A stretch of DNA of 64,000 nucleotides, taken from assembly GCA_963737265.1 (NCBI GenBank), contig CAVTRY010000022.1, positions 288,001-352,000 of the forward strand, written 5' to 3'. Below, piece after piece: positions 17,250 to 57,441 of this stretch. How positions within the stretch are numbered: the stretch's first letter is position 1; each line of letters opens with the position of its first letter. Both the position numbers and the translations under genes were made by a program. A model generated the notes under the pieces. The model did not search any database, had not been told where the DNA came from, and was given only the letters and a program-made list of their open reading frames with translations. This DNA is from an uncultured delta proteobacterium (GTDB lineage Bacteria; Myxococcota_A; Polyangia; Fen-1088).

Positions 17250-17260
17250 AAAAAGGTGCC

Positions 17261-17342
<82 letters not shown>

Positions 17343-17489
17343 ACTGATTTTGCGGCGAGAATCGGCGAGCCTCGCCGTCGACCACGCCTTCCGGCACTTC
17401 GCGGCTCGCGACAGCCGAGCCAGCCAAGCTCATCTACTACCTCCGAGATTCTTCGCGTGGCGCGACGATTCTCCAGGACGAGCCAGCCC

Positions 17490-42321: not shown

Positions 42322-44478
42322 CTACCGCTTGCCAGTCGCCTTGCCGGCCGTCGATTTCTTGTTCGCGGCGGGCGCTGCCTTCGCGGCGGTTTTGCTGCTG
42401 CTCTTGGCAGGTGACGTCTGATGCACGGAGGTCGGCTTGGTCGCCGGTGCTTTCGCGCCGATGCTCGCCTGGTGGCCGGTTTCGCGCGACGTGATCTTCG
42501 CTGGCGTCGATTTTCCGTTCTTGCCGGCAATCTCCTTCATCGCCAGGGCAGGCTTCTTGGGAGCTCCAGTGGCCCTCATCGTAATCTCCTTCGGCAGCTC
42601 GGGCGTGGGCGAATACACGACGACTTTTTGCCCCTCGCCGAGCTCCGAGGTGGCGGACAAGCGGTTGACTCGTGCGAGGTCGCCGGGCGCGAGCCCGTAG
42701 CGTTTGGCGATCTTGGCCAGGCTGTCGCCCGACCGTGCCGAATAGAACAGCCGCGTTTTTCCCCGCCGCGCAGCTTCGAGCTCGAGAAATTCCTCTGACC
42801 CGAGCGTCACCAGGCGAACCTTGTCCGGATCGAGCAGCATCGCGTTCGACCGATCGAAACCCTCATGCACGAACAGTTGGAGGATGAGCTTGGGTTGCAG
42901 CTTGGCGTCGGGATCGATGTGGTTCCACTCGACGATGTCGTCGGGCGTGACGTCGAAGGCGCCCGCGATCTCGGCCAGCGTGTCGCCGTCGCGTGTTCTG
43001 TAAAAGACCTGCTCGCGTCCTTGGTATGCGAAGGCTCGGTCGGGAACCGCCACCAGAATGGAGTCATCGACATCCTCTGTCACTGGCGGGGCCGGCGGTG
43101 TTGCACGCGCGGGAACGAGAATCGTCATACCACCGCGCAGATCCGCGCCGTCGCTGGCGCCGTTGATGCGCTTGAGCTCGCGCACGGAGATCCCGCGCGC
43201 CTTGGCCACGTCGTCGAGGGTTTCGCCGAAACGCAAGACCACCGGTTGCAAGCGCTCGCCGCTTGTCCTCGTTTCGCTCGCCGCCTTAGCGAACAAGCTG
43301 GCCGATCCGAGCGGAACGCGCATGATGACCGCGCCGCGATCCGGCGGGATGCGGCTGCACACGAATTCCGGGTTGAGCTCTTCGATGACGTCTGGCCTGG
43401 TGCCCGCGGCTTTGCGCCAAGGACGCGAACGACGTCCCTGATGGCACTTCGACGCGGTCGAATTCCCACGCTGGATCCAGCGCCACATCGGCGAAGCCGA
43501 AGGCCTTCAGGTTGTGGCCGACGACGGCAGCGGCGAGGATCTTGGGCACGTAGAGGAGTCGTTTCCCAGGGCAAGCCGGCCTCGTGGCGCGCCAGCTCCC
43601 AGAAATCGTTGGTGTTGTAGCGGGCGATGGAACGCAGAATGGCCCCGTAGCCGGCGTTGTAGGCGGCAAACGCCAAGGGCCACGAGCCAAAGCGGACGTA
43701 CAGATCCTTGAGAAGGCGAGCAGCGGCCTCGGCGGCACGTTCCGGATCGCGGCGTGCATCGACCCAATGGCTTACTTCAAGGCCGTAGGCGCGCGCGGCG
43801 CCGGGGATGAACTGCCAAACTCCGCCCGCGCTCCTTCGCGACGTCGCCCCTGGATCGAACCCGCTTTCGACCATGGCCAGGTAGATGCAGATCCTTGGGA
43901 AGTCCTTGCTCGTCCAACTTCTGCTCGATGACCACGCGGTAGCGCCCCATCTTGCGCAGCCAGGTCGTCATGATGGCGCGGCCCTTGGGGTCGTTCTTGA
44001 AGAACTCAAGGTAGCGGACGACCTGCGGCTCCCAGCGAACGGGGAGATCCGGCGGCACCAACTGGCGCATCCAATCGAGGTCGGGTTTTTGCGGCGGTGG
44101 CGCCAGTCCACGCTCGGGGCTGCGCAGCTCGCGCGGGATATCGCCAGTGCCGCCCCATCGTCCCTCGAGCCCGGGCGGCAGCGGTTGGGCCGCATCGTCG
44201 GGCAGCTCGGTGTTTGGAGGCGCGGCGCCGTGGCGTGGAAAAGCCTGCTCCTCGAAGTGGCGGAGGGCGCGCAGCTCCGGACTTTCCGAGCTCTCGGATC
44301 CTTCAAGCGCGACGCCGCGCACGGCTTTGCGTTCGGCGAAGCTCTCCTTGGTGGGCGGCGTGGTCCAAAGCAGCGGTCGCGCCGTCGACTGCGCGGGCAG
44401 CGAGTCGCGTGCCTCGACGCTCCGGTCGAGGGAGGCGGGCACGACCAAAATCAAGGCAGCACAAAGCGCGGGCCGCAT
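42322..44478 (-). CDS. MltD-like lytic transglycosylase with LysM repeats, interrupted by three apparent +1 frameshifts (about 43887, 43556, 43414)
   Basis: GLPKDL | IYLAMVESG...WQF...AAYNAG...PWETT | LYVPKILA...SLA | KAAG...LNP, then LysM repeats, spread over successive frames. Confidence 0.85.
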
Positions 44479-44674
44479 AGTATCGAATGGTAGCGGATCA
44501 AGCGAGGATGACCAAGAAACCGCACCAAGCGCGAAAACCGTGCCCCAGCGCGACTGCAGGCGGGCAGCAAGACAGGACCGACAAAGGGAGCAAGAAGGGA
44601 CCAACAGGGGAAACAAGGGGAGATCGTTTGCCTGCCTGGCTCGCGGGTGGTATAGACCACACCGGAGCTAGCCA

Positions 44675-44905: not shown

Positions 44906-45068
44906 GCACGCCCGTCTCCGCAGCATTGATGGCCGGGATCTGTTCTCCGGCGAGGACGAGCCGTGCAACATCAGTCGCGATTTCATAAAGCGGACAAAAA
45001 ATGTCTGTGTTTGCGCGTTCGTATAAATTCGTCCTTGACGCGTTAATGTGACGATGCAAGATAGCAGC

Positions 45069-45323
45069 ATGACAACACGCACGATCAAGCGATATTCGAA
45101 TCGCAAACTGTACGACACCACCGATTCGCACTACGTGACTCTCCAGCAGATTGCTGGACTCATTCGCAACGGCGACGAAATTCGCGTCATCGACAAAACC
45201 ACCCAGCAGGACCTAACCGCCGCCACGATGGCCCAGATTATCTTCGAAGAAGAGAAGCGGGGACCGAGGCTGCCGGTCGAAGGTCTTCGCCGCATCATCC
45301 GAAGTGGGCTACCGGCCCATTAG
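45069..45323 (+). CDS. PhaR-type PHA-regulator DNA-binding-domain protein
   Basis: IKRYSNRKLYDTTDSHYVTL...DLTAATMAQIIFEEE. Confidence 0.88.
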   Translation: MTTRTIKRYSNRKLYDTTDSHYVTLQQIAGLIRNGDEIRVIDKTTQQDLTAATMAQIIFEEEKRGPRLPVEGLRRIIRSGLPAH

Positions 45324-45344
45324 CCTGTCGCGAAGCGATCTGGT

Positions 45345-46409
45345 CTAGTAATTCAGACCCGCGCTGAGCGAAAACGCGCTCTGCTGTCCACTTTGGTCGA
45401 CGGCGGGGGCGACGTTGTCGTCGCGGCTGTGGCCTGCTTGGTAAAGCTCGTACTGGGCGATGATGGCCAAGACCCCGAATTTGAGTTTCGCACCGCCGAA
45501 GACGCGATAGCGGGTGATCAAGTCCTGGCCGGGGAATGCCGCATTGGCGAGCAGGTCGTTGGTTGTGCCGCTTTGTGCGACGGTGCAGCGGTCGCTGACC
45601 TGTTGGCCGGGCGCCGCTTGCGCCACGGCGTGTGCATCACACAGCGGCGTGAAGTCGATGGGTTTGCCGCTGGCGCTGATTAGGATCAGGCTCAAGCCGC
45701 CAAAGGGCTCCAAACGCGCGGTCTTGAGCAGGCCAAAGCCCTTGGAGATGAGCACGTCGAAGGTATTGGTTCGCAAGTTCGCCTGATCGGTACCGGTCAC
45801 GTACGACATGGCGGCGCGCACCGAAAGCGAAGGCACGGGCCAATCGTGAAAGCCTTCGTGCAAGGCTACCTTGGCGTAGCCCTGCCAGGACAGCATTTGC
45901 GAATCGAGAAGGTTGACCACGCCGCCGCCGATTTCGAGCGCCGGCATGGGCCACCACATGCCCTTGCGCAAGAAGAATCCCATGGTCGTCAGCGTCGCGT
46001 CGGGCCGGGAACTATTCGCAGCCTGAGGCGAAACCGCGCTGACGCCATTCCAGAAGCCCTTGGTGTTGCTAATCTGGGTGAATCCCAGTTCGCCTGTCAC
46101 CATGAAGCCCGCGAAACCGATGGTGTCGGCCGGCATGGGAACTCGGGGCGCCAACACCACACCAAGCTCCGACATCAGGCTGCGAAAATTGCTGCGGCCC
46201 TCCCCGTCGATGGCCACGCCCGTGACTAGTCCATTGGCATCGCGCTTCACCCAGATGCACTCTTGCACGTTGAGAGCGGACGTCGTGGCCAACGGACAGA
46301 GGTTGATCAACTTCAGATCGTTCCTGCCGGCCAAGGCCTTTCCGGCGACTGCGATCGGAGGGAGCCCAATGACGAACACTACGAGTCGGAGGGTTCGATG
46401 CGGGCTCAT
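45345..46409 (-). CDS. Putative outer-membrane beta-barrel protein of unknown function
   Basis: Signal peptide, amphipathic strands, C-terminal SLSAGLNY. Confidence 0.6.
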   Translation of the reverse strand: MSPHRTLRLVVFVIGLPPIAVAGKALAGRNDLKLINLCPLATTSALNVQECIWVKRDANGLVTGVAIDGEGRSNFRSLMSELGVVLAPRVPMPADTIGFAGFMVTGELGFTQISNTKGFWNGVSAVSPQAANSSRPDATLTTMGFFLRKGMWWPMPALEIGGGVVNLLDSQMLSWQGYAKVALHEGFHDWPVPSLSVRAAMSYVTGTDQANLRTNTFDVLISKGFGLLKTARLEPFGGLSLILISASGKPIDFTPLCDAHAVAQAAPGQQVSDRCTVAQSGTTNDLLANAAFPGQDLITRYRVFGGAKLKFGVLAIIAQYELYQAGHSRDDNVAPAVDQSGQQSAFSLSAGLNY

Positions 46410-46504
46410 CAAGCTAGAACGGTATGTGGCCGCGGCAAGGCCTGTCAAGGAACGCGGATTCTTGGCGCGATTTGCCCTGCGGAGTGAGCGGAGTGAGGAA
46501 GCTA

Positions 46505-46534
46505 TTGACAAGTCCGGCATACTGTGAACATAAT
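46505..46534 (+). promoter_or_regulatory. sigma70 promoter of rex
   Basis: TTGACA-N18-CATAAT. Confidence 0.6.
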
Positions 46535-46539
46535 CACAG
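46522..46539. promoter_or_regulatory. Rex operator overlapping the rex -10 box
   Basis: CTGTGAACATAATCACAG, an 18-bp palindrome matching the TTGTGAA-N4-TTCACAA consensus. Confidence 0.8.
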
Positions 46540-46543
46540 CATC

Positions 46544-47227
46544 GTGAGTGCCACCGCGCCCGCCCCTGATGTTAGCTTTCCAGCTGTGGAAACGGCGAGG
46601 AAAGCGGATCGGCGCGTGTCCGTCTCGACGGTGGAAAGGCTCAGCGTCTATCGCAAGGTCCTGGAAGAGCTGCACTACGACGGCGTTGAATACGCGTACT
46701 CTCAGCAACTAGCGGAGATGGTTGGGGTTACGCCCGCTCAACTGCGCCGCGACCTGGCCAGCTTTGGTTCCTTCGGCAACATCAGTCGCGGGTACAACGT
46801 CTATCAACTGACGCGCACGATCAGCCGGATTCTCGGCACCGACGCGGCCCAAACTGTGGCGCTGTTCGGGGTTGGAGATCTCGGGCGATCCCTGCTCGCC
46901 TATCGGGGTTTCGAAGAACGCGGGTTCCACATCGGCGTGGTCTTCGATCTGGATGCCGAAAAGGCTGGCAGAGTTTTCGCCGGCCGGCGCTGTTTCCACG
47001 TCGAGCAAATGGAAAAAGTTCTGCCCGAGTTCGACGTGCGCATCGCCATTCTTGCCTGCCGGCCACCCGGCTTGCAGCAGGTCGTGGATCGGCTCGCCAA
47101 GCTGGGAATCACGTCGATTTTGAACTTCGTGCCCAAGCGAATTTCTCCCGCATCCGGAGGCTACGTGGAGAGCATCGACCTGGCGGCGAAGTTAGAGAAG
47201 CTCTCGTTTCTCAGCCAGAAGAGGTAG
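46544..47227 (+). CDS. rex: Redox-sensing transcriptional repressor Rex
   Basis: TVERLSVY, TPAQLRRDLASFG, GYNV, Rossmann GVGDLG, ILNFVP. Confidence 0.93.
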   Translation: MSATAPAPDVSFPAVETARKADRRVSVSTVERLSVYRKVLEELHYDGVEYAYSQQLAEMVGVTPAQLRRDLASFGSFGNISRGYNVYQLTRTISRILGTDAAQTVALFGVGDLGRSLLAYRGFEERGFHIGVVFDLDAEKAGRVFAGRRCFHVEQMEKVLPEFDVRIAILACRPPGLQQVVDRLAKLGITSILNFVPKRISPASGGYVESIDLAAKLEKLSFLSQKR

Positions 47228-47273
47228 TTCTCCGCAGTCGATTGGTTTTTCAAGATAGGCAGACCACTTGGCA

Positions 47274-47291
47274 CTGTGAAAGTTTTCACTG
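47274..47291. promoter_or_regulatory. Rex operator upstream of the hydrogenase operon
   Basis: CTGTGAAAGTTTTCACTG, 18 bp, GTGAA-N4-TTCAC core. Confidence 0.8.
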
Positions 47292-47360
47292 TTAATTTCG
47301 CGAACTTAGACCACCTGTTCCGTTTGCTCCAACCCTACGTGAAGGAAAGGACATGACATC

Positions 47361-47780
47361 ATGACAAAGCGCATTTTGGTCGTGGATGATGACAAAGATC
47401 TCGTGCGAGCCGTGAGCACCGTGCTCGAGTCGCGCGGCTATGCCGTGACGACGGCTCACAACGGTACCGAGGCCCTGGCCAAGGTCGCTGCCAGCCAGCC
47501 CGCTCTCATCGTTCTCGACGTCATGATGGACACTGACGCCGAAGGGTTCGGCGTGGCCTACAAGCTCGAAGCCGATCCGGCGACCCGCCGAATTCCCATC
47601 ATTCTGCTCTCGGGCTTTACCGATCACATGGCGACCAAGTACGAGTCGTTCGAATTTATCCAGGGACGCGACTGGCCGGCCGCCAAGTTCATGAAGAAGC
47701 CAGTCAGCATGCCCGAGCTGGTAGCGACCATCGGCAAGCTTCTTGCCGAAGCCGAGTCGTTGCGCGCGGCCGTGGCTTAG
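47361..47780 (+). CDS. Single-domain response regulator (receiver only)
   Basis: ILVVDDD, LDVMM, LLSG, KKP. Confidence 0.92.
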   Translation: MTKRILVVDDDKDLVRAVSTVLESRGYAVTTAHNGTEALAKVAASQPALIVLDVMMDTDAEGFGVAYKLEADPATRRIPIILLSGFTDHMATKYESFEFIQGRDWPAAKFMKKPVSMPELVATIGKLLAEAESLRAAVA

Positions 47781-47831
47781 TTGTAGTCGTTCCACCCCCA
47801 AACCACCTAAGAAGACCCCGAGGTAAGCAGT

Positions 47832-48314
47832 ATGTGTGACGTGGACCAGATCATTGCGGGACACGAGGAGCTTGGCAAAGAGCACCTCATCCCCCTGCTA
47901 CAAGAGATTCAAGCGAAGGAAGGGTACGTTTCCGAAACCGCGATGTCGAAGGTGGCAACCGCCGTCGGTATTCCCGAAAGCCGCGTTTATGGCGTGGCTA
48001 CCTTCTACAACCAGTTTCGTTTCATCCCCAAGGGAACCCACGTCATCGAGGTGTGTCGGGGAACCGCATGCCACGTCAAGCAAAGCCTGAAGCTGGCGCA
48101 GCACCTCACGCGCAGGCTGAGCCTCAAGCCCAACGGCAATTCGCCGGACAACAAGTTCACGGTTATCACCGTGGCTTGCCTCGGGGCCTGCTCGATCGCG
48201 CCCGTCATCAAGCTGGACGGCGAATTCTACGGTCACCTCGACGTGGACAAGCTGGACCATCTCCTCGACGAAGTCACCCAGGAAACAAAGGGAGGCAGCG
48301 ATGCGCGCAAGTAA
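47832..48314 (+). CDS. hydC: NuoE-like [2Fe-2S] subunit HydC
   Basis: GVATFYNQF, CRGTAC, CLGAC. Confidence 0.9.
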   Translation: MCDVDQIIAGHEELGKEHLIPLLQEIQAKEGYVSETAMSKVATAVGIPESRVYGVATFYNQFRFIPKGTHVIEVCRGTACHVKQSLKLAQHLTRRLSLKPNGNSPDNKFTVITVACLGACSIAPVIKLDGEFYGHLDVDKLDHLLDEVTQETKGGSDARK

Positions 48315-50313
48315 TCTGGTCGCCGCCTGTTGCACCCGTTGCACGCACGCCCCCATCACGCCGTGTCGCGATCTGATTCGCTGTCTTAGCGAAGGTCCGA
48401 TCTGCCATCACGACGAGGGCTGCGCGCAGAAGCGCAAGGAGAATCTCGTTCACGCTCGGCGAGGTGGAGCGGGAACCCTAATCTTCGTCGGAGCAGGTAC
48501 GTGCGGACGGGCTAACGGTGCCAACAAAGTCATCGCCGACATCCACGCTTTCTTGAAGGAGCACGCTATCGCGGCCGAGGTCGTGGAGGTTGGCTGCGTT
48601 GGCTATTGCCAACGCGAAGTCTTCGTCGACGTCGAAAAGGCGGGCGGCCCCCGACTTTCCTACTGCGACATCAACCCCTCAAACGTCGGCGAATTTCTCG
48701 ACCTGCTTTTCACGCAGGACAACGCCCGCAATCGTTTCCTTTACGGCCGCCACGGCCAGGCCGGCGCGGAATGGGCCGACGTTCCCGAGGTCGCCACCAC
48801 GCCCTTCTTCAAGCAGCAAGTGAAAGTCGTGCTTCGCAACGCCGGTCTCATCGATCCCGGCGCGCTCGATTCCGCGCTTGCGGTCGGCGCCTTCCGGGCC
48901 GCCTCGCGCGCCGTCGGCAGCATGACGCCCGAGGAAGTTTGCAACGAAGTGCTCGCCTCCGGCTTGCGCGGCCGCGGCGGCGCGGGATTTCCCACCGGCC
49001 AAAAGTGGAACATCGCCCGGCAAACGCCGCGTGCGCAGAAGTACCTCATCTGCAACGCAGACGAAGGCGATCCGGGCGCGTTCATGGATCGCGCGGTGCT
49101 GGAAAGCGATCCCTTCTTCGTCATCGAAGGCATGATCATCGCGGCCTACGCCATTGGCGCATCCAAGGGCTACATCTACTGCCGCGCGGAGTATCCGCTC
49201 GCCATCGAACGCCTGGCCGACGCCATCGCCCAGTGCCGCCGCGTGGGATTGCTCGGCAACAACATTCTAGGCAGCTTGTTTTCCTTCGACATCACGATCA
49301 AGCAAGGCGCGGGTGCCTTCGTGTGCGGCGAGGAAACCGCCATCCTTGCCAGCATCGAAGGCGGTCGCGGCATGCCCCGTCCCCGTCCGCCCTACCCGGC
49401 GGTCAGCGGTTTGCACGGCAAGCCCACGGTCCTTAACAACGTCGAGACCCTGGCCAATGTGCCCATCATCGTCGACCGCGGCGCCGCGTACTTCCAGAGC
49501 TTGGGCCTCGGTAAAGCCGCCGGGACTAAGGTCTTCGCACTATCCGGTACGATCCAGAATACCGGCCTCGTCGAAGTACCGGTTGGCGTTCCGCTCAAGA
49601 CCATCATTTACGACATCGGCGGCGGCGCGCTGCCCGGCCACGAAATCAAGGCCGTGCAGATTGGCGGCCCGTCCGGTGGCTGCATCCCGCGCGAGCACCT
49701 CGACGTCGCCACGGACTACGGTACCTTGATCGAGCTCGGGGCCATGATGGGCTCGGGCGGCATGGTGGTGATGGACGAGCGCACGTGCATGGTCGCCATC
49801 GCTCGCTTCTTCATGGAATTCATCCGCAACGAATCGTGCGGCAAGTGCACGCCCTGTCGTGAGGGCACCACGCGCCTGTCCGAGATTCTCACCTCGCTCA
49901 CCGAACGTCCGGTGGGCGACGAGGAGAAACGCTTGGAGCGCATCCGCGGAGTGCTGCACATGCGCGAGCTGGCTTCCACGGTGAAGGAGGCTTCATTGTG
50001 CGGCCTCGGTCAAACCGCCGCCAATCCCGTGCTTTCAACCCTGCGCTTCTTCCGCGACGAGTACGAAGCGCATGTTATCGACCAGCGCTGCCCCGCCGGC
50101 GAATGCCAAGGGTTGGCCATCTACGCCGTCGACAACGCGACCTGCGTCGGCTGTCTGCTGTGCAAGAAAGCCTGCCCGAGCAACGCCATCGTGGGCGAAC
50201 GCAAACAGGCGCATTACATTCTGGTCGACCGCTGTATCGGCTGCGGCTCGTGTGTCAGCGCCTGTCCCAAGCACTCAATCCATGTCGTTCAAGAAGAGAG
50301 GGCCTACGCATGA
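48301..50313 (+). CDS. hydB: NuoF-like FMN/NAD-binding subunit HydB
   Basis: LRGRGGAGF, CNADEGDPGAFMD, CGEET, GGPSGG, SCGKCTPC, C-terminal 2x[4Fe-4S]. Confidence 0.92.
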   Translation: MRASNLVAACCTRCTHAPITPCRDLIRCLSEGPICHHDEGCAQKRKENLVHARRGGAGTLIFVGAGTCGRANGANKVIADIHAFLKEHAIAAEVVEVGCVGYCQREVFVDVEKAGGPRLSYCDINPSNVGEFLDLLFTQDNARNRFLYGRHGQAGAEWADVPEVATTPFFKQQVKVVLRNAGLIDPGALDSALAVGAFRAASRAVGSMTPEEVCNEVLASGLRGRGGAGFPTGQKWNIARQTPRAQKYLICNADEGDPGAFMDRAVLESDPFFVIEGMIIAAYAIGASKGYIYCRAEYPLAIERLADAIAQCRRVGLLGNNILGSLFSFDITIKQGAGAFVCGEETAILASIEGGRGMPRPRPPYPAVSGLHGKPTVLNNVETLANVPIIVDRGAAYFQSLGLGKAAGTKVFALSGTIQNTGLVEVPVGVPLKTIIYDIGGGALPGHEIKAVQIGGPSGGCIPREHLDVATDYGTLIELGAMMGSGGMVVMDERTCMVAIARFFMEFIRNESCGKCTPCREGTTRLSEILTSLTERPVGDEEKRLERIRGVLHMRELASTVKEASLCGLGQTAANPVLSTLRFFRDEYEAHVIDQRCPAGECQGLAIYAVDNATCVGCLLCKKACPSNAIVGERKQAHYILVDRCIGCGSCVSACPKHSIHVVQEERAYA

Positions 50314-52034
50314 GCGTCGTCATCGATGGTAAAGAAGTAGAATTCACCAACGGCGAGACGGTGCTGGCGGCGGCCGAGCGTTCGGGAATTTCCATCCCGC
50401 ACCTGTGCTCGCTCGATTGGGCATGCAAGTCCGAGGCGGCCTGCCGCATGTGCTTGGTCGAGATTGAGGGCATGCCACGCTTGCAGACGAGCTGCACCCT
50501 GGAGGCCAAGGACGGCATGAAGGTGAAGACCCGTTCGCCGCGTGTGCAGGCGATTCGGCGCAATCTCGTCGAATTGCTCATCGCCAATCACCCCAACGAT
50601 TGTCTGGTGTGCGCGCGTAACCAGAACTGCGAGCTGGCACAGGTGGCGAGCGAGCTCGGCGTGCGCGAACGGCGCTATCGCGGTCTCAAGAAAAATCATG
50701 CCATCGACGTGTCCTCTCCGTCGCTGGTGCGCGACCCCAACAAGTGTATCTTGTGTGGCCGCTGCGTGGCCGTGTGCCATTCCGTACAAGGGGTGGGCGC
50801 CATCGATTTCATCGAGCGCGGTTTCAAGACGCGCGTCGGGCCCGGATTTCACGATGGTATCAACGTCTCGTCGTGCATCTTCTGCGGGCAGTGCACCCGC
50901 GTGTGCCCGACCGCGGCTCTCATGGAGAAGAGCCAGGTCGACGACGTCATCGCGGCCCTGTCCGACCCGAATGTCGTGGTTGTGGCGCAGGTGGCGCCCG
51001 CGGTTCCTGCCACGCTGATGGAAAAGGCCAAGGCCAGCTCGGTGCGGACGATGCTGCTCAAGTTGGCGGCGGCGCTCAAGCGAGTGGGCTTCGGCGCGGT
51101 GTTCGACACCGGATTCGCGGCGGATCTGACCATCATGGAGGAGGTGTCCGAGCTCATCCGCAGGGTTCAGCAAGGAGGCCCCTTGCCCATGTTCACCAGC
51201 TGTTCGCCGGGCTGGATTCAGTACGTGGAAACCCAGCGCCCCGAGCTGATTCCCCACCTGTCCACTTGCAAATCTCCGCAGCAAATGGCGGCGGCGCTCA
51301 TCAAAGACGTGTACCCGCGCCACCGCGACCTCGGCGGCAAGCGGCTGGTGTGCGTTTCCCTCATGCCCTGCACGGCCAAGAAATTCGAAGCCAGCGAGCT
51401 CGGCGACGTCGACTTCGTGCTCACCACGCGCGAGATCGAACAGTTGCTTCTCCGCTTCGGCATCGACCTCGCGAAGGTTACCGAGCAAGGCATGCTGGAT
51501 CCGCCGTTCTCCTCGGCGACCGGCGCCGGCCGGCTCTTTGGCGGCACGGGCGGCGTGATGGAGGCGGCCATTCGAACCGCCCACAAGATGCTGACCGGGG
51601 AGGAGCTCAAGGGCGGCCTCAAGGTCGAAGAGGCGCGCGGTCTCGAAGGCATGAAGTCCTTTTCGCTCGACGTGGGTGGAACCACGCTCAACTTCGGCAT
51701 CGTCAACGGGCTCGGCCGGCTCAAGCCCATGCTCGATCCCATCCGCAAGGGCACGTCCAACCTGCACTTCATCGAAGTCATGACCTGCCCCGGCGGTTGC
51801 ATCGGCGGCGGCGGCCAACCTTACGACACCGATCCCGAAGCCATCCGCATTCGCCTCGAACGTATCTACGAAGCCGACCGGCGCTCCACGCTCAGGACTT
51901 CGCACGAAAATGACGAAGTGAAGACCTTGTACACCGAGATGCTGGGCCAGCCGCTCGGCGAGGTAAGCCACCACTTGCTTCACCGCTCGTACGTCGATCG
52001 CAGCCGCAAGGAGGCGCCAACGGACGCTCGCTAG
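50310..52034 (+). CDS. hydA: [FeFe]-hydrogenase catalytic subunit HydA (group A, trimeric type)
   Basis: N-terminal [2Fe-2S], HxxxCxxC and 2x[4Fe-4S]; H-cluster motifs TSCSPGW, MPCTAKKFE, EVMTCPGGCIGGGGQP. Confidence 0.94.
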   Translation: MSVVIDGKEVEFTNGETVLAAAERSGISIPHLCSLDWACKSEAACRMCLVEIEGMPRLQTSCTLEAKDGMKVKTRSPRVQAIRRNLVELLIANHPNDCLVCARNQNCELAQVASELGVRERRYRGLKKNHAIDVSSPSLVRDPNKCILCGRCVAVCHSVQGVGAIDFIERGFKTRVGPGFHDGINVSSCIFCGQCTRVCPTAALMEKSQVDDVIAALSDPNVVVVAQVAPAVPATLMEKAKASSVRTMLLKLAAALKRVGFGAVFDTGFAADLTIMEEVSELIRRVQQGGPLPMFTSCSPGWIQYVETQRPELIPHLSTCKSPQQMAAALIKDVYPRHRDLGGKRLVCVSLMPCTAKKFEASELGDVDFVLTTREIEQLLLRFGIDLAKVTEQGMLDPPFSSATGAGRLFGGTGGVMEAAIRTAHKMLTGEELKGGLKVEEARGLEGMKSFSLDVGGTTLNFGIVNGLGRLKPMLDPIRKGTSNLHFIEVMTCPGGCIGGGGQPYDTDPEAIRIRLERIYEADRRSTLRTSHENDEVKTLYTEMLGQPLGEVSHHLLHRSYVDRSRKEAPTDAR

Positions 52035-52037
52035 CTC

Positions 52038-54065
52038 ATGGGAGTTATCCAGACCATCAATCAGAACTGCCGACGATGCTATTCGTGCGTGCGCGATTGC
52101 CCGGCCAAGGCAATCAAGATCGTCGAGGGTCAAGCCTCGGTGGTCATCGAACGCTGCATCTCGTGCGGCAACTGCACGGTGGTCTGCTCCCAGAACGCCA
52201 AGGCCTACGCCAGCGGCACCGAACGCGTTCTTGAGCTGTTGGCGGGCGGGAAACCGGTGGTCGCGATGGTCGCGCCGTCCTTTCCCGCCGACGATTGCGG
52301 CGAGGATGCCGAGCGCTTGGTGGGCGCGCTTCGCCAGCTCGGGTTCAGCCATGTCGTGGAAGTGGCGTTCGGAGCCGATCTCACCAGCCGCGCCTACCAA
52401 GCGTACATCAAGGAACATCCGACGGGCACGCGCGTGGCGACCGCCTGCCCCGCAGTGGCCGAGTATGTGCGCAAGTACAACCCTGATCTCGTCGGCTGCC
52501 TTATCCCCATCGTCTCGCCCATGATCGCGACCGCCATGGCGGTACAGGCAATCCACGGCAAGGATCACGCGTGCGTGTTCATCGGGCCGTGCGTGGCCAA
52601 GAAGCGCGAAATGCTCGACCCGCAAGTCCCTGCGGTCGTCCAGGCCGTGTTGACCTTCGACGAGCTTCGCCGCCTCTTCGCCGAACGTGGCGTGCGCGTG
52701 GCCGGGGCAACGCCGTCCGATTTCGATCCGCCGCACGCGGGATCTGGGCGCCTCTACCCTTTTGTAGGTGGCCTGCTCAAGAGCGCCGGTATCGAGCGCA
52801 ACACGCTGAATGCCGAGGTCATGGTTCTTTCTGGCGCCCCCGAGATCATTGAGGTCTTGGGCGACCTGCGACCAGACGACCCCGAGCCGTTGTTCGTCGA
52901 GCCGCTCATGTGCCGGGGTTGCTACAGCGGACCCGCGATGCGCGGCGATAGCCGCCGCCTGCAACGCAAACGACGCGTGGCCGAATACGTGAAATCGCGC
53001 TTGGCGGAGGCAACCACGGAACCGACCAAGATGCCCGAGCTCGATCTACATCGCGCCTTCACCCCCGACGACCAGCGCCTGAAAGAGCCCACCGAACAAG
53101 AGATCCGCGTGATCCTGTCGCGCACCAACAAGTTCACCGTCGAGGACGAGCTCAACTGTGGCGCCTGCGGCTACACCACCTGCCGGGCCAAGGCCGTGGC
53201 GGTGTTTCGCGGCCTCGCCGAAGAGGCCATGTGTCTGCCCTTCATGATCGAGCAGGCCGAGCGCGTGTGCCACGAGCTCAAGGTGCCCTGGCCCAATCTC
53301 AAGGACATCCACCGCCACCTTATCAACACCGAGAAGCTGGCTTCCATGGGACAGATGGCGGCCGGGGTTGCCCACGAGCTCAACAATCCCCTCGGCACCA
53401 TTCTGCTCTACACCAACATCCTCATGCGCAAGCTCAAGGAGCGGCCCGACCTCGACCACGACCTCAAGCTGCTCGTCGATGAGGCGAATCGCTGCAAGAA
53501 GATCATCGGCAATCTGCTCGATTTCGCGCGTCAGAATCGCGCCCAGATTGAGCGCACCGACATCGCCGAGCTTCTGCGTCGGGTGGTGGAGGAATCGCTT
53601 TTCGCTTTGAGCGACGTGGGGCCGGGACTCGAGGTCACCTGCGAGGCGCCCATCGATCTTTTCGCCGACATCGACAAGGACCAAATCGGTCAGGTATTGG
53701 TCAATCTGGTGAAGAACGGCATCGAGGCCATGGAGGGCAAGGCCGGCGTCGTGCGCCTGGTTGCCGTCGACGTGCCCGCCACCAGCCGCGTGCGCATCGC
53801 GGTCAGCGACCAGGGACGCGGCATCGCTCCCGAGGCGCGCGACAAGGTCTTTCAGCCGTTTTTCACCACCAAGAGCCTCGGGCGTGGTACGGGACTCGGC
53901 CTGCCCATCGCCTACGGTATCGTGAAAATGCACAGTGGAAGAATTTGGTTCGATTCGGTGCAAGGTCAGGGAACGACCTTCACCCTCGAGCTTCCCAAGA
54001 CCCAATCCCTGCGAAGGAGCATGCCAAATAATGACGAAAAGCCTCAAGATTCTATTTGTCGATGA
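52038..54065 (+). CDS. Sensory (group C-type) [FeFe]-hydrogenase fused to a histidine kinase
   Basis: 2x[4Fe-4S], TACP, GPCVAKKRE, MCRGCYSGP, CGACGYTTC FeS domain, then AHELNNPL, NLVKNG, DQGRG, GTGLGL. Confidence 0.9.
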   Translation: MGVIQTINQNCRRCYSCVRDCPAKAIKIVEGQASVVIERCISCGNCTVVCSQNAKAYASGTERVLELLAGGKPVVAMVAPSFPADDCGEDAERLVGALRQLGFSHVVEVAFGADLTSRAYQAYIKEHPTGTRVATACPAVAEYVRKYNPDLVGCLIPIVSPMIATAMAVQAIHGKDHACVFIGPCVAKKREMLDPQVPAVVQAVLTFDELRRLFAERGVRVAGATPSDFDPPHAGSGRLYPFVGGLLKSAGIERNTLNAEVMVLSGAPEIIEVLGDLRPDDPEPLFVEPLMCRGCYSGPAMRGDSRRLQRKRRVAEYVKSRLAEATTEPTKMPELDLHRAFTPDDQRLKEPTEQEIRVILSRTNKFTVEDELNCGACGYTTCRAKAVAVFRGLAEEAMCLPFMIEQAERVCHELKVPWPNLKDIHRHLINTEKLASMGQMAAGVAHELNNPLGTILLYTNILMRKLKERPDLDHDLKLLVDEANRCKKIIGNLLDFARQNRAQIERTDIAELLRRVVEESLFALSDVGPGLEVTCEAPIDLFADIDKDQIGQVLVNLVKNGIEAMEGKAGVVRLVAVDVPATSRVRIAVSDQGRGIAPEARDKVFQPFFTTKSLGRGTGLGLPIAYGIVKMHSGRIWFDSVQGQGTTFTLELPKTQSLRRSMPNNDEKPQDSICR

Positions 54066-54453
54066 CGACCGCGATTTTCTCGCCGCCCAGACCGCCTTCT
54101 TTCGCGGCCGTGGCTACCACGTCGCCAGTATCGATCGCGTCGAGGGCGCGCTCGAGCTCATCGCGCAGGAAAAGCCCGACGTCATCGTGCTCGACCTCAT
54201 GATGGAGCACCACGATTCCGGCTTCCTGCTTGGTCGCCGCATTCGTCGTGATCCCAACATGGGATCCGTCCCCATTATCATGCTGTCCGGCGTGGCTGCG
54301 GCGACCGGACACAAGTTTTCCGCCGACGCCGCCGCGCTCAAGGAATGGATAAAGCTCGATGCCTTCCTCGATAAGCCGGTCACCGGGCGCCAACTCTGCA
54401 AGACCATCGAAGAGAAGCTGGCGGCGCGCGCGCCGGCCGCAGCCGTGGGGTAA
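54031..54453 (+). CDS. Single-domain response regulator (receiver only)
   Basis: ILFVDDD, LDLMM, MLSG, DKP. Confidence 0.9.
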   Translation: MTKSLKILFVDDDRDFLAAQTAFFRGRGYHVASIDRVEGALELIAQEKPDVIVLDLMMEHHDSGFLLGRRIRRDPNMGSVPIIMLSGVAAATGHKFSADAAALKEWIKLDAFLDKPVTGRQLCKTIEEKLAARAPAAAVG

Positions 54454-54455
54454 TC

Positions 54456-55916
54456 TTGCCGAGCGTTCTCGTCATCGACGACGAATACGGCGTTCGTTCC
54501 GGGATCCGCCAGATCCTGGAAATGGAAGGCTACGTCGTCGAGCTCGCTGCCACCGGGCGCGAGGCGCTGGCGCTGCTCGACCAGAAGCGTTTCGACATCG
54601 CGCTTATCGACTACCAACTGCCCGACGTGGACGGATTGACCCTGCTGTCGACCATGCGCAGCCGCAAGCTGCCCACCATGACGTGCATGATCACCGCCTA
54701 CGCGAACATCGACACCGCCATCGCGGCCACCCGGCAGGGCATCGACTTCTTTCTGCCCAAACCGTTTTCGCCCGACGATTTGCTCGGCGTGATGGAAACC
54801 CTGTCGCGCCACAAGCGCCTCAAGGAAGAAGCGGAAAAGCTGCGGCGTGAAAACGAGGCGAACTTGCTCGCCTTGGCCACGGAAAAGAGCCAGACGAGCT
54901 CGCTCGTCTCGTCGTTGCGAGACGCGGTACTGGTCATCAATCGTGAGCGCGAGGTGGTGCTAGCCAACCATGCCATGGCGGAGCTGCTCGGGCACGTGCA
55001 GAAAGATCTGCTGCGCAAATCGGTCGACGCCGTGCTGGCCGAGGCATCGCTGGTCGGGCTCGCCGATCTGTTGCCTTCCTCGGGCGATGACGACCGCAAA
55101 ACTTCCGAGCTAACCGTCGGCGACAAGATCTTCTTTGCCAGCGCCGTGACCTTTCGCGGTGACGACGGCGTGGCCATGGGGCGCATCCTGACCCTGGCCG
55201 ACGTGACCGAAATGCGGCGCATGGCCATGGAGAAGCCGCGCTTCATTCGCACCATGGTGCACGAGTTTCGCTCCCCCCTCGGGGCGATTCGCAGCCTCAT
55301 CGAGGTCGCGCTCGACAAGAGCCTGGGCGGCGATGTCGCACCCTACTTGCCCTTCCTCGAACGCGCCGACCGTCGCATCGATAAGATGGTCGAGCTCATC
55401 GGCGACCTGCTGTCGTTGTCGCGCATCGATCTGGACAGGACGGCTAAGGTGTCGGTCGAGAACACGGATTTGCAAACGTGCGTGGCCTCGATTGCGGATC
55501 TCTACCGCGAAAAGATAGCTGCCCAGCAGATGGCATTCGCGATGGCCATCGCGCCTGGCCTCGCAGTTCGGATCGCCGACGAGGATCTTAAAACCGTCCT
55601 TGGCAATCTCGTCGGAAATGCCATCAAGTACAGCCGCGACACGGGCACGGTGCACATCAACGCCGCCCGCACGGACAGCGACATCGCCATCGAGGTCGTC
55701 GATGCCGGCATCGGCATCAAGCCCGAGAACCTGGCGCGCCTTTTCGAGGAGTTTTTTCGGGAAAAGCGGCCCGAAACCCGCGACATCGAGGGCAACGGTC
55801 TCGGCTTAGCGATCGTCAAGCGCCTAGTCGAGCGGGCCGGCGGCCGCGTCGAGGTCGCCAGCGTGCTCGGCCAAGGTTCCACCTTCCGCGTCGTCCTGCC
55901 CGCAAGTCCGGTTTGA
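54456..55916 (+). CDS. Hybrid kinase: receiver-PAS-HisKA-HATPase
   Basis: VIDDE...IDYQL...PKPF; PAS-like DAVLVIN; VHEFRSPL; NAIKY; DAGIG; GNGLGL. Confidence 0.9.
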   Translation: MPSVLVIDDEYGVRSGIRQILEMEGYVVELAATGREALALLDQKRFDIALIDYQLPDVDGLTLLSTMRSRKLPTMTCMITAYANIDTAIAATRQGIDFFLPKPFSPDDLLGVMETLSRHKRLKEEAEKLRRENEANLLALATEKSQTSSLVSSLRDAVLVINREREVVLANHAMAELLGHVQKDLLRKSVDAVLAEASLVGLADLLPSSGDDDRKTSELTVGDKIFFASAVTFRGDDGVAMGRILTLADVTEMRRMAMEKPRFIRTMVHEFRSPLGAIRSLIEVALDKSLGGDVAPYLPFLERADRRIDKMVELIGDLLSLSRIDLDRTAKVSVENTDLQTCVASIADLYREKIAAQQMAFAMAIAPGLAVRIADEDLKTVLGNLVGNAIKYSRDTGTVHINAARTDSDIAIEVVDAGIGIKPENLARLFEEFFREKRPETRDIEGNGLGLAIVKRLVERAGGRVEVASVLGQGSTFRVVLPASPV

Positions 55917-55950
55917 CCTACCGCTGCCGCTCCCGTAGCTTGCGCAGTCC

Positions 55951-57441
55951 ATGGATGCGCTTGCGATAGCAATTCTCGCCGCCGGCCTGGTGGCCCTGCT
56001 TGCCAGCGTGGCCCTGCTGGTCGGCTACCGTTTCGAGCGTTTCGTCGGAGTTCGCTACCTTCGACGAGCCACGCCTTCGCGCCCGGTGCGGTTCGGGCTG
56101 TGGACTTCGCTCGCGCTCACCATCGCCGGGCTGCTCGTCACCTTGGCGACGCGCAACCACCAGCGCGGCCTTGAGACGTGCGCGGTGATCGTCGTCGTGG
56201 TGGGCGGGTTCGCCAGCATTCTCTTTCTGCTGCTGCGGGTGTTCTCGGTCTTCACCACCGTTTCCACCATGGGTGTCATGCTCGGGGTGGCCTCGCTGGT
56301 CGTCGTGCTTTCGGTGACCAGCGGCTTCGAGCGCGAATTCAAGGAAAAGGTGCTGGCCGTCAATGCCCACCTGATCGTGACGTCCTATGGGCTGGAACGT
56401 AACGTCGACGAGGCCGATCGCGAGGCGGAGAAAGTGCGCAGGCAACTGGTCGGGTTTCCCGGCCTGGTGAGCACGTCGCGGTTCAGCTTCACCGCTGGCG
56501 AGGTGATGATTGGCAAGGTTGGCGCCAATCTCAAGGGCGTCGAAGTGTCCGAAGGCGTGCCCGAGCTGCGGCACGCGTTGATCGCGGGATCGGTCGACGA
56601 TCTTGCCAAGCCAGCCACCTGCGCGGGCACGGTGGCCGTGGCATCCGAAAGCGAGAAGATCGGACGCCTTATTCTTGGTTCCGATCTCGCCCACCGCGTG
56701 CACGCCGCCGTGGGAGACTGCGTGCAAGTGCTCGTGCCCTTCTCGGGCGACGTGGATTCCGCGCCGAGCGCCTACGCCTTCCGCGTGGTGGGCATTTTTT
56801 CCTTTGGCTTCCAGGAATACGACGCGCGCCTGGCCTTCATTCCCCTCGAAGACGCGCGCCGCCTGGGCAACGCACGCCAATCCATCTTCGGCGTCGAGGT
56901 GCGCTTCGCCGACCCCATGCAGGCCCTCACCGTCGAGGAAGACGTGCAAACGCGCCTCGGTCCCGAGATGCGCATCATCGACTGGAAGACGCTCAACCGG
57001 AATCTCTTCACCGCCCTCGCCATGCAGAAGCTCATCATCTCGCTGCTGCTCGTTCTCATCATCGTGGTCGCCGCCTTCAACATCGTCGCGTCGCTGATGC
57101 TGGTGGTGCTATCCAAGGTGCGCGAGGTCGCCATCCTTGCCTCCATGGGCGCGCGCTCGGGATCGCTCTTGCGTGTGTTCCTGGTGTCGGGCAGTTTCGT
57201 CGGCATCGTGGGCACCGGCTTTGGCATTCTCTACGGCCTGGCCCTGTGCGCCCTGGCCGCGCTCTATGGCTATCCCCTCGATCCCAAGGTGTACCTCATT
57301 GCGCGCTTGCCCGTGGAAGTGTCCCTTCGCGAGGTCCTGTTCGTCGCCGGTGCGACCCAGATCATCTGCTTTCTTGCCACACTCTATCCCGCCAAACGCG
57401 CCGCCCGCCAGCGCGTGGTCGACGGCCTCAAGTACGTGTGA
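55951..57441 (+). CDS. LolC/E-family ABC transporter permease
   Basis: RYLR, GVASLVVVLSVTSGF, DWKTLNRNLFTAL, VAAFNI, TLYPA. Confidence 0.88.
   Translation: MDALAIAILAAGLVALLASVALLVGYRFERFVGVRYLRRATPSRPVRFGLWTSLALTIAGLLVTLATRNHQRGLETCAVIVVVVGGFASILFLLLRVFSVFTTVSTMGVMLGVASLVVVLSVTSGFEREFKEKVLAVNAHLIVTSYGLERNVDEADREAEKVRRQLVGFPGLVSTSRFSFTAGEVMIGKVGANLKGVEVSEGVPELRHALIAGSVDDLAKPATCAGTVAVASESEKIGRLILGSDLAHRVHAAVGDCVQVLVPFSGDVDSAPSAYAFRVVGIFSFGFQEYDARLAFIPLEDARRLGNARQSIFGVEVRFADPMQALTVEEDVQTRLGPEMRIIDWKTLNRNLFTALAMQKLIISLLLVLIIVVAAFNIVASLMLVVLSKVREVAILASMGARSGSLLRVFLVSGSFVGIVGTGFGILYGLALCALAALYGYPLDPKVYLIARLPVEVSLREVLFVAGATQIICFLATLYPAKRAARQRVVDGLKYV

Follow-up and report, generated by a model that had tools for sequence, protein, structure and literature searches.

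We analysed a window of 64,000 nucleotides (positions 288,001 to 352,000 of contig CAVTRY010000022.1) from the genome of an uncultured delta proteobacterium. A block of eight genes in this window (46505..55916) encodes the repressor Rex, a predicted bifurcating [FeFe]-hydrogenase (HydABC), a sensory-type hydrogenase domain fused to a histidine kinase, a second kinase, and two stand-alone receivers (REC1 and REC2). We are confident, from the sequence, that the block is an operon and that its enzyme is of the bifurcating type. We propose, about as readily as we doubt it, that the whole may serve a facultatively aerobic myxobacterium as a two-input cassette for the control of fermentative H2 evolution. 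The type to which the cassette belongs is widespread and already catalogued; the cassette is a variant of it and not a new myxobacterial system. What appears to be new, relative to the literature that we found, is the subfamily of receivers, the tracking of hydA by REC2, and natural fusions of REC1 to Rex.

In the proposed mechanism, NADH/NAD+ is low during respiration, and Rex would occupy both the -10 box of its own promoter and a second operator in front of REC1-hydCBA. Once O2 was exhausted and NADH rose, Rex would release the DNA and the operon would be expressed. HydABC, matured by the HydE, HydF, and HydG proteins that are encoded elsewhere, would oxidize NADH and reduced ferredoxin to form H2 (both the activity and its direction are presumed). 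The hydrogenase domain (H-domain) of the sensor kinase would bind an H-cluster, turn over slowly, and report H2, its presumed signal, to His446. The sensor kinase would then phosphorylate the N-terminal receiver of the second kinase, the free receivers, or both, and the architecture of the second kinase suggests a receiver-gated amplifier or a phosphatase. The free receivers would be the output, acting by protein contact via a conserved insertion after strand beta4. Judging by co-occurrence, REC2 may act on the hydrogenase complex and tune it when H2 accumulates, while co-occurrence and gene fusions suggest that REC1, its paralogue, may act on Rex or also on HydABC.

The operon and its predicted bifurcating hydrogenase

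The 9.4 kb block consists of eight intact open reading frames (ORFs), all on the forward strand and without internal stops. They lie in the order rex, REC1, hydC, hydB, hydA, sensor kinase, REC2, and REC-PAS-kinase, and the Pfam and NCBIfam domains agree with this assignment. The gaps between successive genes are +133, +51, -14, -4, +3, -32, and +2 nucleotides. A first-pass annotation of the window, made from the sequence by itself, had described this co-directional order, with genes that overlap or nearly abut from hydC onward, and was accurate on both counts. It had begun the block at 46505, which is no gene start but part of the TTGACA -35 hexamer of a promoter.

The annotation had named chimeric junctions as a possible flaw in its reading. 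Among the metagenome runs that we compared, which were from soil, peat, and permafrost, one run (X3) has independent contigs, about 93% alike (2 records), that bridge 45249-47464 (from the upstream gene to REC1) and 53312-57098 (from the sensor kinase to lolE); no single contig covers the whole stretch. The full eight-gene order is also present in 6 of the 7 orthologous loci that were fetched from the genus, and the seventh ends at a contig edge. Because both outer junctions are bridged and the order is conserved in the genus, we rejected the idea that the junctions are chimeric.

HydA, HydB, and HydC are encoded side by side, which is the three-subunit arrangement of group A3. HydC (47832..48314) is a NuoE-like [2Fe-2S] subunit (PF01257, 156 bits) with Cx4C and Cx3C motifs. 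HydA (50310..52034) is a catalytic H-cluster subunit of the group A3 type and scores over the cut-off of TIGR02512. Its best match in the PDB is HydA1 of T. kivui (8a6t, E = 1e-167), and the HydA of A. woodii is also among the closest solved structures. The H-cluster motifs P1 to P3 of HydA are TSCSPGW, MPCTAKKFE, and EVMTCPGGCIGGGG, and TSCSPGW is common to the active enzyme of A. woodii (7q4v). HydB (48301..50313) is the FMN/NAD subunit and aligns to 7q4v_B, 8a6t_B, and 7p5h_B. The residues that have been put forward as marking bifurcation in HydB, in the part of the source available to us, are A/E232-x-M234, F367, and GGPSG (PMC7311640). The HydB of the window has all three, with GAFM at 258-261, GAGAFVCGEE at 336, and GGPSG at 455. 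It also has the B1, B3, and B4 cluster sites, an H-x-CP-x-C site, and two C-terminal [4Fe-4S] motifs of the form CxxCxxCxxxC.

The enzyme thus shares its subunit set, H-cluster motifs, and HydB bifurcating signature with the HydABC enzymes of T. kivui, A. woodii, and T. maritima (8a6t, 7q4v, and 7p5h). Compared to these, the HydB of the window adds a CCxxC prefix (NF040902) and an N-terminal thioredoxin-like site with three cysteines, and the solved enzymes have no known receiver partner. In the host genome, hydE, hydF, and hydG each score over the TIGRFAM cut-off, and hydE is on the same contig as the window. Together with the maturases, the subunit set and the motifs of HydA and HydB bear out the first-pass identification of a bifurcating-type HydABC.

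Rex and its predicted operators

The rex gene (46544..47227) encodes an NADH/NAD+-sensing repressor (NF003995, 197 bits against a cut-off of 126; PF06971 and PF02629). The protein has a winged helix-turn-helix and a Rossmann fold with GxGxxG and there is an operator at the promoter, as in a Rex regulon. The gene probably starts at a GTG and would be nearly leaderless; CATCGTG is invariant behind the first operator. The promoter is of the sigma-70 type (TTGACA-18-CATAAT, 46505..46534) and matches the consensus at 11 of 12 positions, and its TTGAC and spacing are kept in all 6 of the aligned sequences from the genus. (Promoter-like sites in this region number 5, versus 2.0 in shuffles.)

The consensus for Rex operators, as given in the available text of a study of Caldithrix, is TTGTGAA-n4-TTCACAA (PMC5317091). 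Operator 1 (46523..46538) overlaps the -10 hexamer and operator 2 (47275..47290) lies between rex and REC1, and each has one mismatch to the core TGTGAA-n4-TTCACA. Across the 6.55 Mb of the host genome, just 5 sites differ from the core by one mismatch or none, and 2 of these are in this operon. Both operators are conserved within the genus (operator 1, whose position is kept, in 6 of 6 aligned sequences and operator 2 in 7 of 7). In Actinomycetota, counterparts were found for operator 1 in 18 of 19 loci (up to 4 mismatches to the 18-mer) and for operator 2 in 16 of 19 loci (up to 3 mismatches). Two conserved operators, one of them on the -10 box, would put the operon under Rex, as the first-pass annotation had implied, and the behavior of the Rex family suggests that the control is by repression. 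According to the same study, Rex lets go of DNA at high NADH (PMC5317091), which points to H2 evolution.

The one perfect Rex core in the genome is elsewhere (L118:3608-7632; G000 C16:382607). It lies upstream of genes for an Rrf2 regulator, citrate synthase (in two pieces), and succinyl-CoA synthetase, and near genes for a 2-oxoacid oxidoreductase and succinate dehydrogenase/fumarate reductase.

The stand-alone receivers and the proposed output of the cassette

REC1 (47361..47780) and REC2 (54034..54453) are stand-alone receivers (PF00072), and both keep the residues for phosphorylation (D9-D11, D53, S84, and K113 in REC1; D10-D12, D54, S85, and K114 in REC2). In alignments, they share an insertion after beta4, of about 12 residues in REC1, that ends in a conserved tryptophan. 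In REC2, W105, G92, T91, and F95 are at least 90% conserved (46 rows). The two receivers belong to a hydrogenase-linked subfamily: when a REC2 profile, which contains REC2 itself, was run on the host genome, the receivers of hydrogenase loci were the top 4 of 129 receiver matches. A search with this profile was dominated by multi-receiver hybrid kinases, but at a domain score of at least 110, 19 of 20 matches were single-domain proteins and the other was a tandem receiver. We found no longer fused forms of REC2 at E = 1e-15, in what was a weak search.

To describe the distribution of the cassette, we used the best 80 of at least 563 confirmed genome loci. After dropping 5 loci that were cut by contig ends, REC2-type receivers and hydA were both present in 67 of 75 loci and both absent from 6. 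There were 2 loci with hydA only and none with REC2 only. Of the two exceptions, one has a frameshifted REC2 and the other has an intermediate receiver. Also, 5 genomes have the sensor without an adjacent hydA, and 4 of these have, at another site, a catalytic hydA with a receiver of the subfamily no more than about 3 kb away.

REC1, in turn, is fused in frame to Rex in 11 of the best 120 clusters. These fusions occupy 3 positions on the Rex tree, as forced by starred branches. The tracking of hydA by REC2 and the fusions of REC1 to Rex favor HydABC, and possibly Rex as well, as the target of the output. We put an output on the enzyme through REC2 at a little under an even chance. Our literature search, which was mostly outside of subscription journals, found no paper on phosphorylation control of a bifurcating hydrogenase or of Rex, or on a link between receivers and Rex.

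Natural Rex-receiver fusions can be seen at L046:2620-3738 and L070:239-1420 and in proteins P0121-P0131, and both of the genome loci are without a second Rex box. A single-chain fold of such a fusion has two well-folded parts and a disordered linker (pTM 0.58). Because Rex is a dimer, this model is uninformative.

REC1 could instead be a dedicated phospho-switch of Rex, either an anti-repressor or a co-repressor, so that H2 would reach transcription via the only DNA-binding protein in the cassette while REC2 served the enzyme. We consider this to be possible but unlikely, at about one chance in several. Besides the fusions themselves, a fused clade of 9 clusters holds the reading frame across a variable linker between Rex and REC1, and rex is upstream of REC1 in 33 of 40 strong REC1 loci from metagenomes. 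Two loci from separate subclades (L058 and L066) have lost hydCBA and REC2 and have kept rex, REC1, and both kinases, and no catalytic H-domain was found in the genome of L058. However, other junctions fuse too (REC2 with the kinase in L039, and REC1 with HydC in L050, which is ridden with frameshifts), our search for REC1-Rex fusions selected for fusions, and the fused genes retain an internal GG-ATG/GTG start. Also, REC1-type receivers are found between hydA and the sensor, which is the place of REC2, in L140, L143, and L093; L042 has rex without REC1; and most of the rex-bearing loci in other phyla lack REC1.

No less doubtful is an alternative in which the free receivers would be phosphate sinks or connectors, with a DNA-binding response regulator from another part of the genome as the true output. 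Single-domain receivers frequently serve as phosphate sinks. The host genome has at least 129 receiver matches to choose from, and a sigma-54 activator lies near its hydF. As the first-pass annotation had noted, none of the relay proteins has a DNA-binding domain in a Pfam scan. NtrC-like receivers do occur near the sensor, though in just 3 of the 80 loci. Against the idea, clustering the neighbors from the 80 loci turned up no recurrent DNA-binding partner other than TetR and AsnC proteins that are limited to certain lineages. Furthermore, it is not evident why a sink should carry a conserved surface insertion with invariant W, G, and F residues, or why it should track hydA.

The sensor kinase and the second kinase

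The sensor kinase (52038..54065) combines an H-domain of the group C type with a Cx2Cx4Cx16C cluster motif and HisKA and HATPase domains (with H446 as the predicted phosphorylated histidine), as judged from Pfam, motifs, and the predicted fold. The N-terminal 420 residues have the fold of an [FeFe]-hydrogenase H-domain (AlphaFold2, pLDDT 92.7), and every listed Foldseek match is an [FeFe]-hydrogenase. The ligand cysteines C137, C185, C292, and C295 and the residues of the 2Fe pocket (A79-P80, S160-P161, P184, and K188) are invariant in 108 of 108 alignment rows. At the positions equivalent to C299, M353, and M497 of CpI, the sensor has A136, G183, and L290, which is the pattern of substitutions in TmHydS and TamHydS (PMC8163306, PMC10055695, as far as their accessible text goes). 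With the H-cluster cysteines kept, this A/G/L pattern, and the fused HisKA/HATPase kinase, the sensor is indeed a group C-type hydrogenase/kinase, as first annotated. It belongs to a large family (5,341 clusters at E = 1e-30, among 8,000 candidates scored).

Among the closest known proteins are TmHydS (group C, M2f) and TamHydS (group D, M2e), for which we rely on the accessible text of three papers (PMC8163306, PMC10055695, PMC13104023). Like these, the sensor has two N-terminal [4Fe-4S] motifs (PF04060), lacks an equivalent of C299, has the C-terminal Cx2Cx4Cx16C motif, and shares an operon with a group A enzyme. In contrast, the output of TmHydS and TamHydS is PAS/phosphatase, and a PAS domain fused to the H-domain marks the M2f (TmHydS) type, while the sensor of the window has no PAS domain and has in its place a fused HisKA/HATPase kinase, with receivers encoded alongside.

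In sensors of the window type, a near-invariant linker, Q-x-ERVC-x-EL-x-x-PW, precedes the kinase helix (53265-53300, about residues 406-425 of the sensor). Sensors of the other clade differ in having a coiled coil.

The second kinase (54456..55916) has an N-terminal receiver (D52), a coiled coil, and PAS, HisKA (H269), and HATPase domains. Its PAS domain is poorly conserved and has no conserved histidine or cysteine (36 rows), and we therefore rejected sensing of O2 by a heme-PAS domain. The first-pass annotation had described a phosphorelay. The two kinases and the receivers are present, but Pfam finds no Hpt domain in the cassette and both histidine sites are in full HisKA/HATPase kinases, so we prefer the term two-kinase cascade.

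We think that H2 is rather probably the signal for the sensor. In their available text, a review and a 2026 study call this sensory role putative and its partners unidentified. The sensor might instead read the redox state of Fe-S clusters, damage by O2, or CO, for instance through an H-domain that is [4Fe-4S]-only or labile to O2, and thereby shut down an O2-sensitive enzyme in an O2-respiring host. We judge this to be improbable, somewhat more so than either of the alternatives for the output. The sensors have a shortened CxGC motif, all 12 genus-mates have matches to the heme-copper oxidase family (some of which are lower-scoring and possibly nitric oxide reductases), and the C-terminal cluster of TamHydS is reported not to respond to H2 in the portion of the source at hand. 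On the other hand, the 2Fe-pocket residues are invariant, and members of the sensor family are frequent in Bacteroidales and other strict anaerobes.

The host and the probable direction of the hydrogenase

The contig that holds the window is 427 kb long, and the genome, of 6.55 Mb, is 99.5% complete with 7.6% contamination. The closest relatives of the sensor with titled records are 77-82% identical and are labelled "Myxococcales" or "delta proteobacterium", and they fall with the window and its genus-mates in one starred clade of 8 rows. This agrees with the first-pass suspicion of a myxobacterial host (Myxococcota). HydABC had previously been reported from metagenome-assembled genomes of Myxococcota, according to the accessible text of two preprints (bioRxiv 2021.07.06.451402; bioRxiv 2026.07.10.737566).

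The genome encodes alternative complex III with a heme-copper oxidase, bd oxidase, and genes of complex I. It also has three proteins of the pyruvate:ferredoxin oxidoreductase type (POR_N) and two AckA proteins that score over the cut-off, while neither RnfC nor DsrA had a match over the cut-off in this genome. Because this member of the Myxococcota has an oxygen respiratory chain, the simplest reading is that it is probably a facultative fermenter. Fermentative or syntrophic growth had been suggested from the first pass. A fermentative, H2-evolving role is likely, but none of the features that we tested points to syntrophy specifically. That HydABC in vivo is an H2-uptake bifurcating hydrogenase, switched on by the sensor when H2 is available, seems the least probable of the alternatives: HydABC enzymes are reversible, the nearest solved relatives are uptake enzymes of acetogens, and no Rnf was found in the host genome to otherwise consume low-potential ferredoxin, but derepression of Rex at high NADH fits the disposal of NADH, and the available text on the Caldithrix operon makes the same argument (PMC5317091).

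Several observations weigh against the proposed two-input cassette. First, by number, two Rex boxes are within chance for the window (2 versus 1.13 expected; 28 of 100 shuffles reach 2), so the case for the operators comes from their position and conservation. Second, the joint loss of REC2 and hydA amounts to 5 changes on the tree, but the starred branches leave just 4 pairs that are independent (p = 0.125 by a sign test), and the co-deletion of operon neighbors could mimic this pattern. Third, receiver-NuoE fusion clusters, in Omnitrophota and Nitrospirota, account for 6 of 30 Atlas matches and speak for the proposal, but membership of these receivers in the subfamily is putative. Fourth, the third motif (L3) is CxGC in 82 of 84 sensors, which is one residue shorter than in catalytic enzymes, and therefore the loading of an H-cluster into the sensor is only putative. 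Fifth, the papers that we consulted contain no H2-response or phosphotransfer data for this type of sensor, so that H2 sensing is itself putative. Finally, the N-terminal thioredoxin-like [2Fe-2S] site (B2) of HydB has three cysteines (GTC, GCVGYC), as in the beta chains of 8oh5 and 9bov, whereas the HydB of A. woodii has four. The full chain, in which an H2-sensing H-cluster kinase signals through the second kinase to dedicated receivers that directly switch the bifurcating hydrogenase (REC2) and Rex (REC1), all in a cassette that is mobile between phyla, would be a tentative proposal, and we think it unlikely to hold in every part.

Distribution and relation to known systems

Among the best 80 loci, hydA is present in 71, the receiver-kinase in 72, a free receiver in 74, and rex in 50. 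hydA and the receiver-kinase occur together in 66 of these loci, from 11 named phyla. All eight parts, in the order of the window, are found in 25 loci (17 from Actinomycetota and 8 from Myxococcota/delta) if fused, frameshifted, and end-cut genes are counted. Since the core is in 11 named phyla, we reject an invention specific to this lineage. The sensor tree and the HydA tree (a quick tree) give the same starred clade for the rows with the full cassette, which implies that the enzyme and the sensor travel together. In the HydA tree, and for the most part in the sensor tree, Actinomycetota are nested among Myxococcota/delta rows. The Rex tree has the reverse nesting, and the trees disagree on the direction of transfer.

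Within the phylum, the sensor domain is found in 27 of 301 genomes. Within the family, 23 of 89 genomes have it, all from just two genera (11 of 12 genomes in one and 11 of 11 in the other, besides the host genome). A first look, with 0 of 12 genomes elsewhere in the family, had suggested that it was confined to one genus; this was overturned by the search of the full family, which revealed the second genus.

The core of the cassette is already in print as a genomic description, so the first-pass view of it as an undescribed system does not hold. The comparisons that follow are with the accessible text of each source. One of the closest systems is the sub-type V BfuABC with a kinase-bearing "BfuT" from Hydrogenedentota, Caldithrix abyssi, and Bacteroidota, published in 2024 (PMC11406978). 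It likewise has hydC-hydB-hydA followed by a fusion of a group C H-domain to a histidine kinase, a P1 motif of the Ser type, and mobility across phyla. The terms "response regulator" and "Rex" are absent from the main text, the matches in its supplement are unrelated, and the free receivers, second kinase, and operators of our cassette are not described there. HydDB has a class of [FeFe] group C1, "histidine kinase-linked (putative)", that also joins a sensory-type H-domain to a histidine kinase (PMC5037454). This is a class label only, with the role given as undetermined. The architecture of our sensor fits the name of C1, while the best HydDB match of the kinase-fused BfuT beside A3 is given as group C3 (PMC11406978). 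Finally, the cultured bacterium Caldithrix abyssi has a rex-headed operon for a bifurcating HydABC (Cabys_3675-3679, rex-hydCBA) with an upstream Rex box, cTGTGAATCAATTCACAt, and this operon was read as H2-evolving (PMC5317091). The sensor, receivers, kinase, REC1, and second operator are not described for it.

Related modules and other features of the genome

The host genome has a second module (L013:10358-19998 and L014:3030-4435; G000 C11) with the order rex-hydC-hydB-hydA-REC-sensor kinase-REC/kinase-TM1266-like regulator. Its HydB has an added GltD/DPD_II FAD domain and is 1,084 amino acids long, and the module is directly behind an operon for the NiFe-hydrogenase HoxFUYH that has its own receiver and kinase. 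Duplication as the source of the two sensor paralogues of the genome was rejected (approximately unbiased test, p = 2e-9). On the sequence evidence, the second module is a separate acquisition from the cassette in the window. A third hydC-hydB-hydA cluster (L015:6845-11088; G000 C23) has the bifurcating motifs in HydB; a frameshift splits its hydA, and a transposase is nearby. In four genus-mates, a similar third hydCBA cluster lies directly behind a window-type cassette. Another gene (L016:8137-10230; G000 C13) fuses an H-domain, similar to group C2, to a methyl-accepting chemotaxis protein signalling domain and might function in H2 taxis.

The region around hydF (L122:8394-15065; G000 C11) includes genes for an aspartase-like lyase, a rubredoxin-like ORF, a flavodiiron-type protein, and a sigma-54 response regulator. 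In several other phyla, genes for maturases also lie downstream of the cassette.

Upstream of the cassette and divergent from rex are an ORF with a PHB_acc_N domain (PhaR-like) and an ORF of 391 amino acids without a match in Pfam or NCBIfam (45048-46520), and these do not flank the cassette in other species. Downstream, a lolE-like gene begins 34 bp after the cassette on the same strand, and it too is not a neighbor in other species. On the reverse strand, at 42322-44616, a LysM/lytic transglycosylase gene is apparently broken across three frames. This suggests indel errors in the assembly, so other frameshifts in the genome may be artefacts. The only Rfam match in the window is a small signal recognition particle RNA (17256-17353, forward strand), with none in the block, and terminator patterns are not convincingly above chance (13 versus 9.8).

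Implications

For a decade, [FeFe]-hydrogenases have been presumed to sense H2 without an output having been demonstrated, and a 2026 paper, in its available text, calls the identification of partners critical. Here, a stretch of 9.4 kb holds the sensor, transmitter, candidate targets, operators, and enzyme, all of which are soluble, so an assay of H2-dependent autophosphorylation and phosphotransfer could be built directly, and the comparative data rank REC2-HydABC and REC1-Rex as the pairs of first interest. Two genera of a myxobacterial family that otherwise carries oxidases (23 of 89 genomes) have O2-sensitive hydrogenases under what would be dual control, which could plausibly lead to the production of H2 in peat and wetland soils. 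If the proposal is correct, then phosphorylation would control both a bifurcating hydrogenase and Rex, within a single cassette that crosses phyla.

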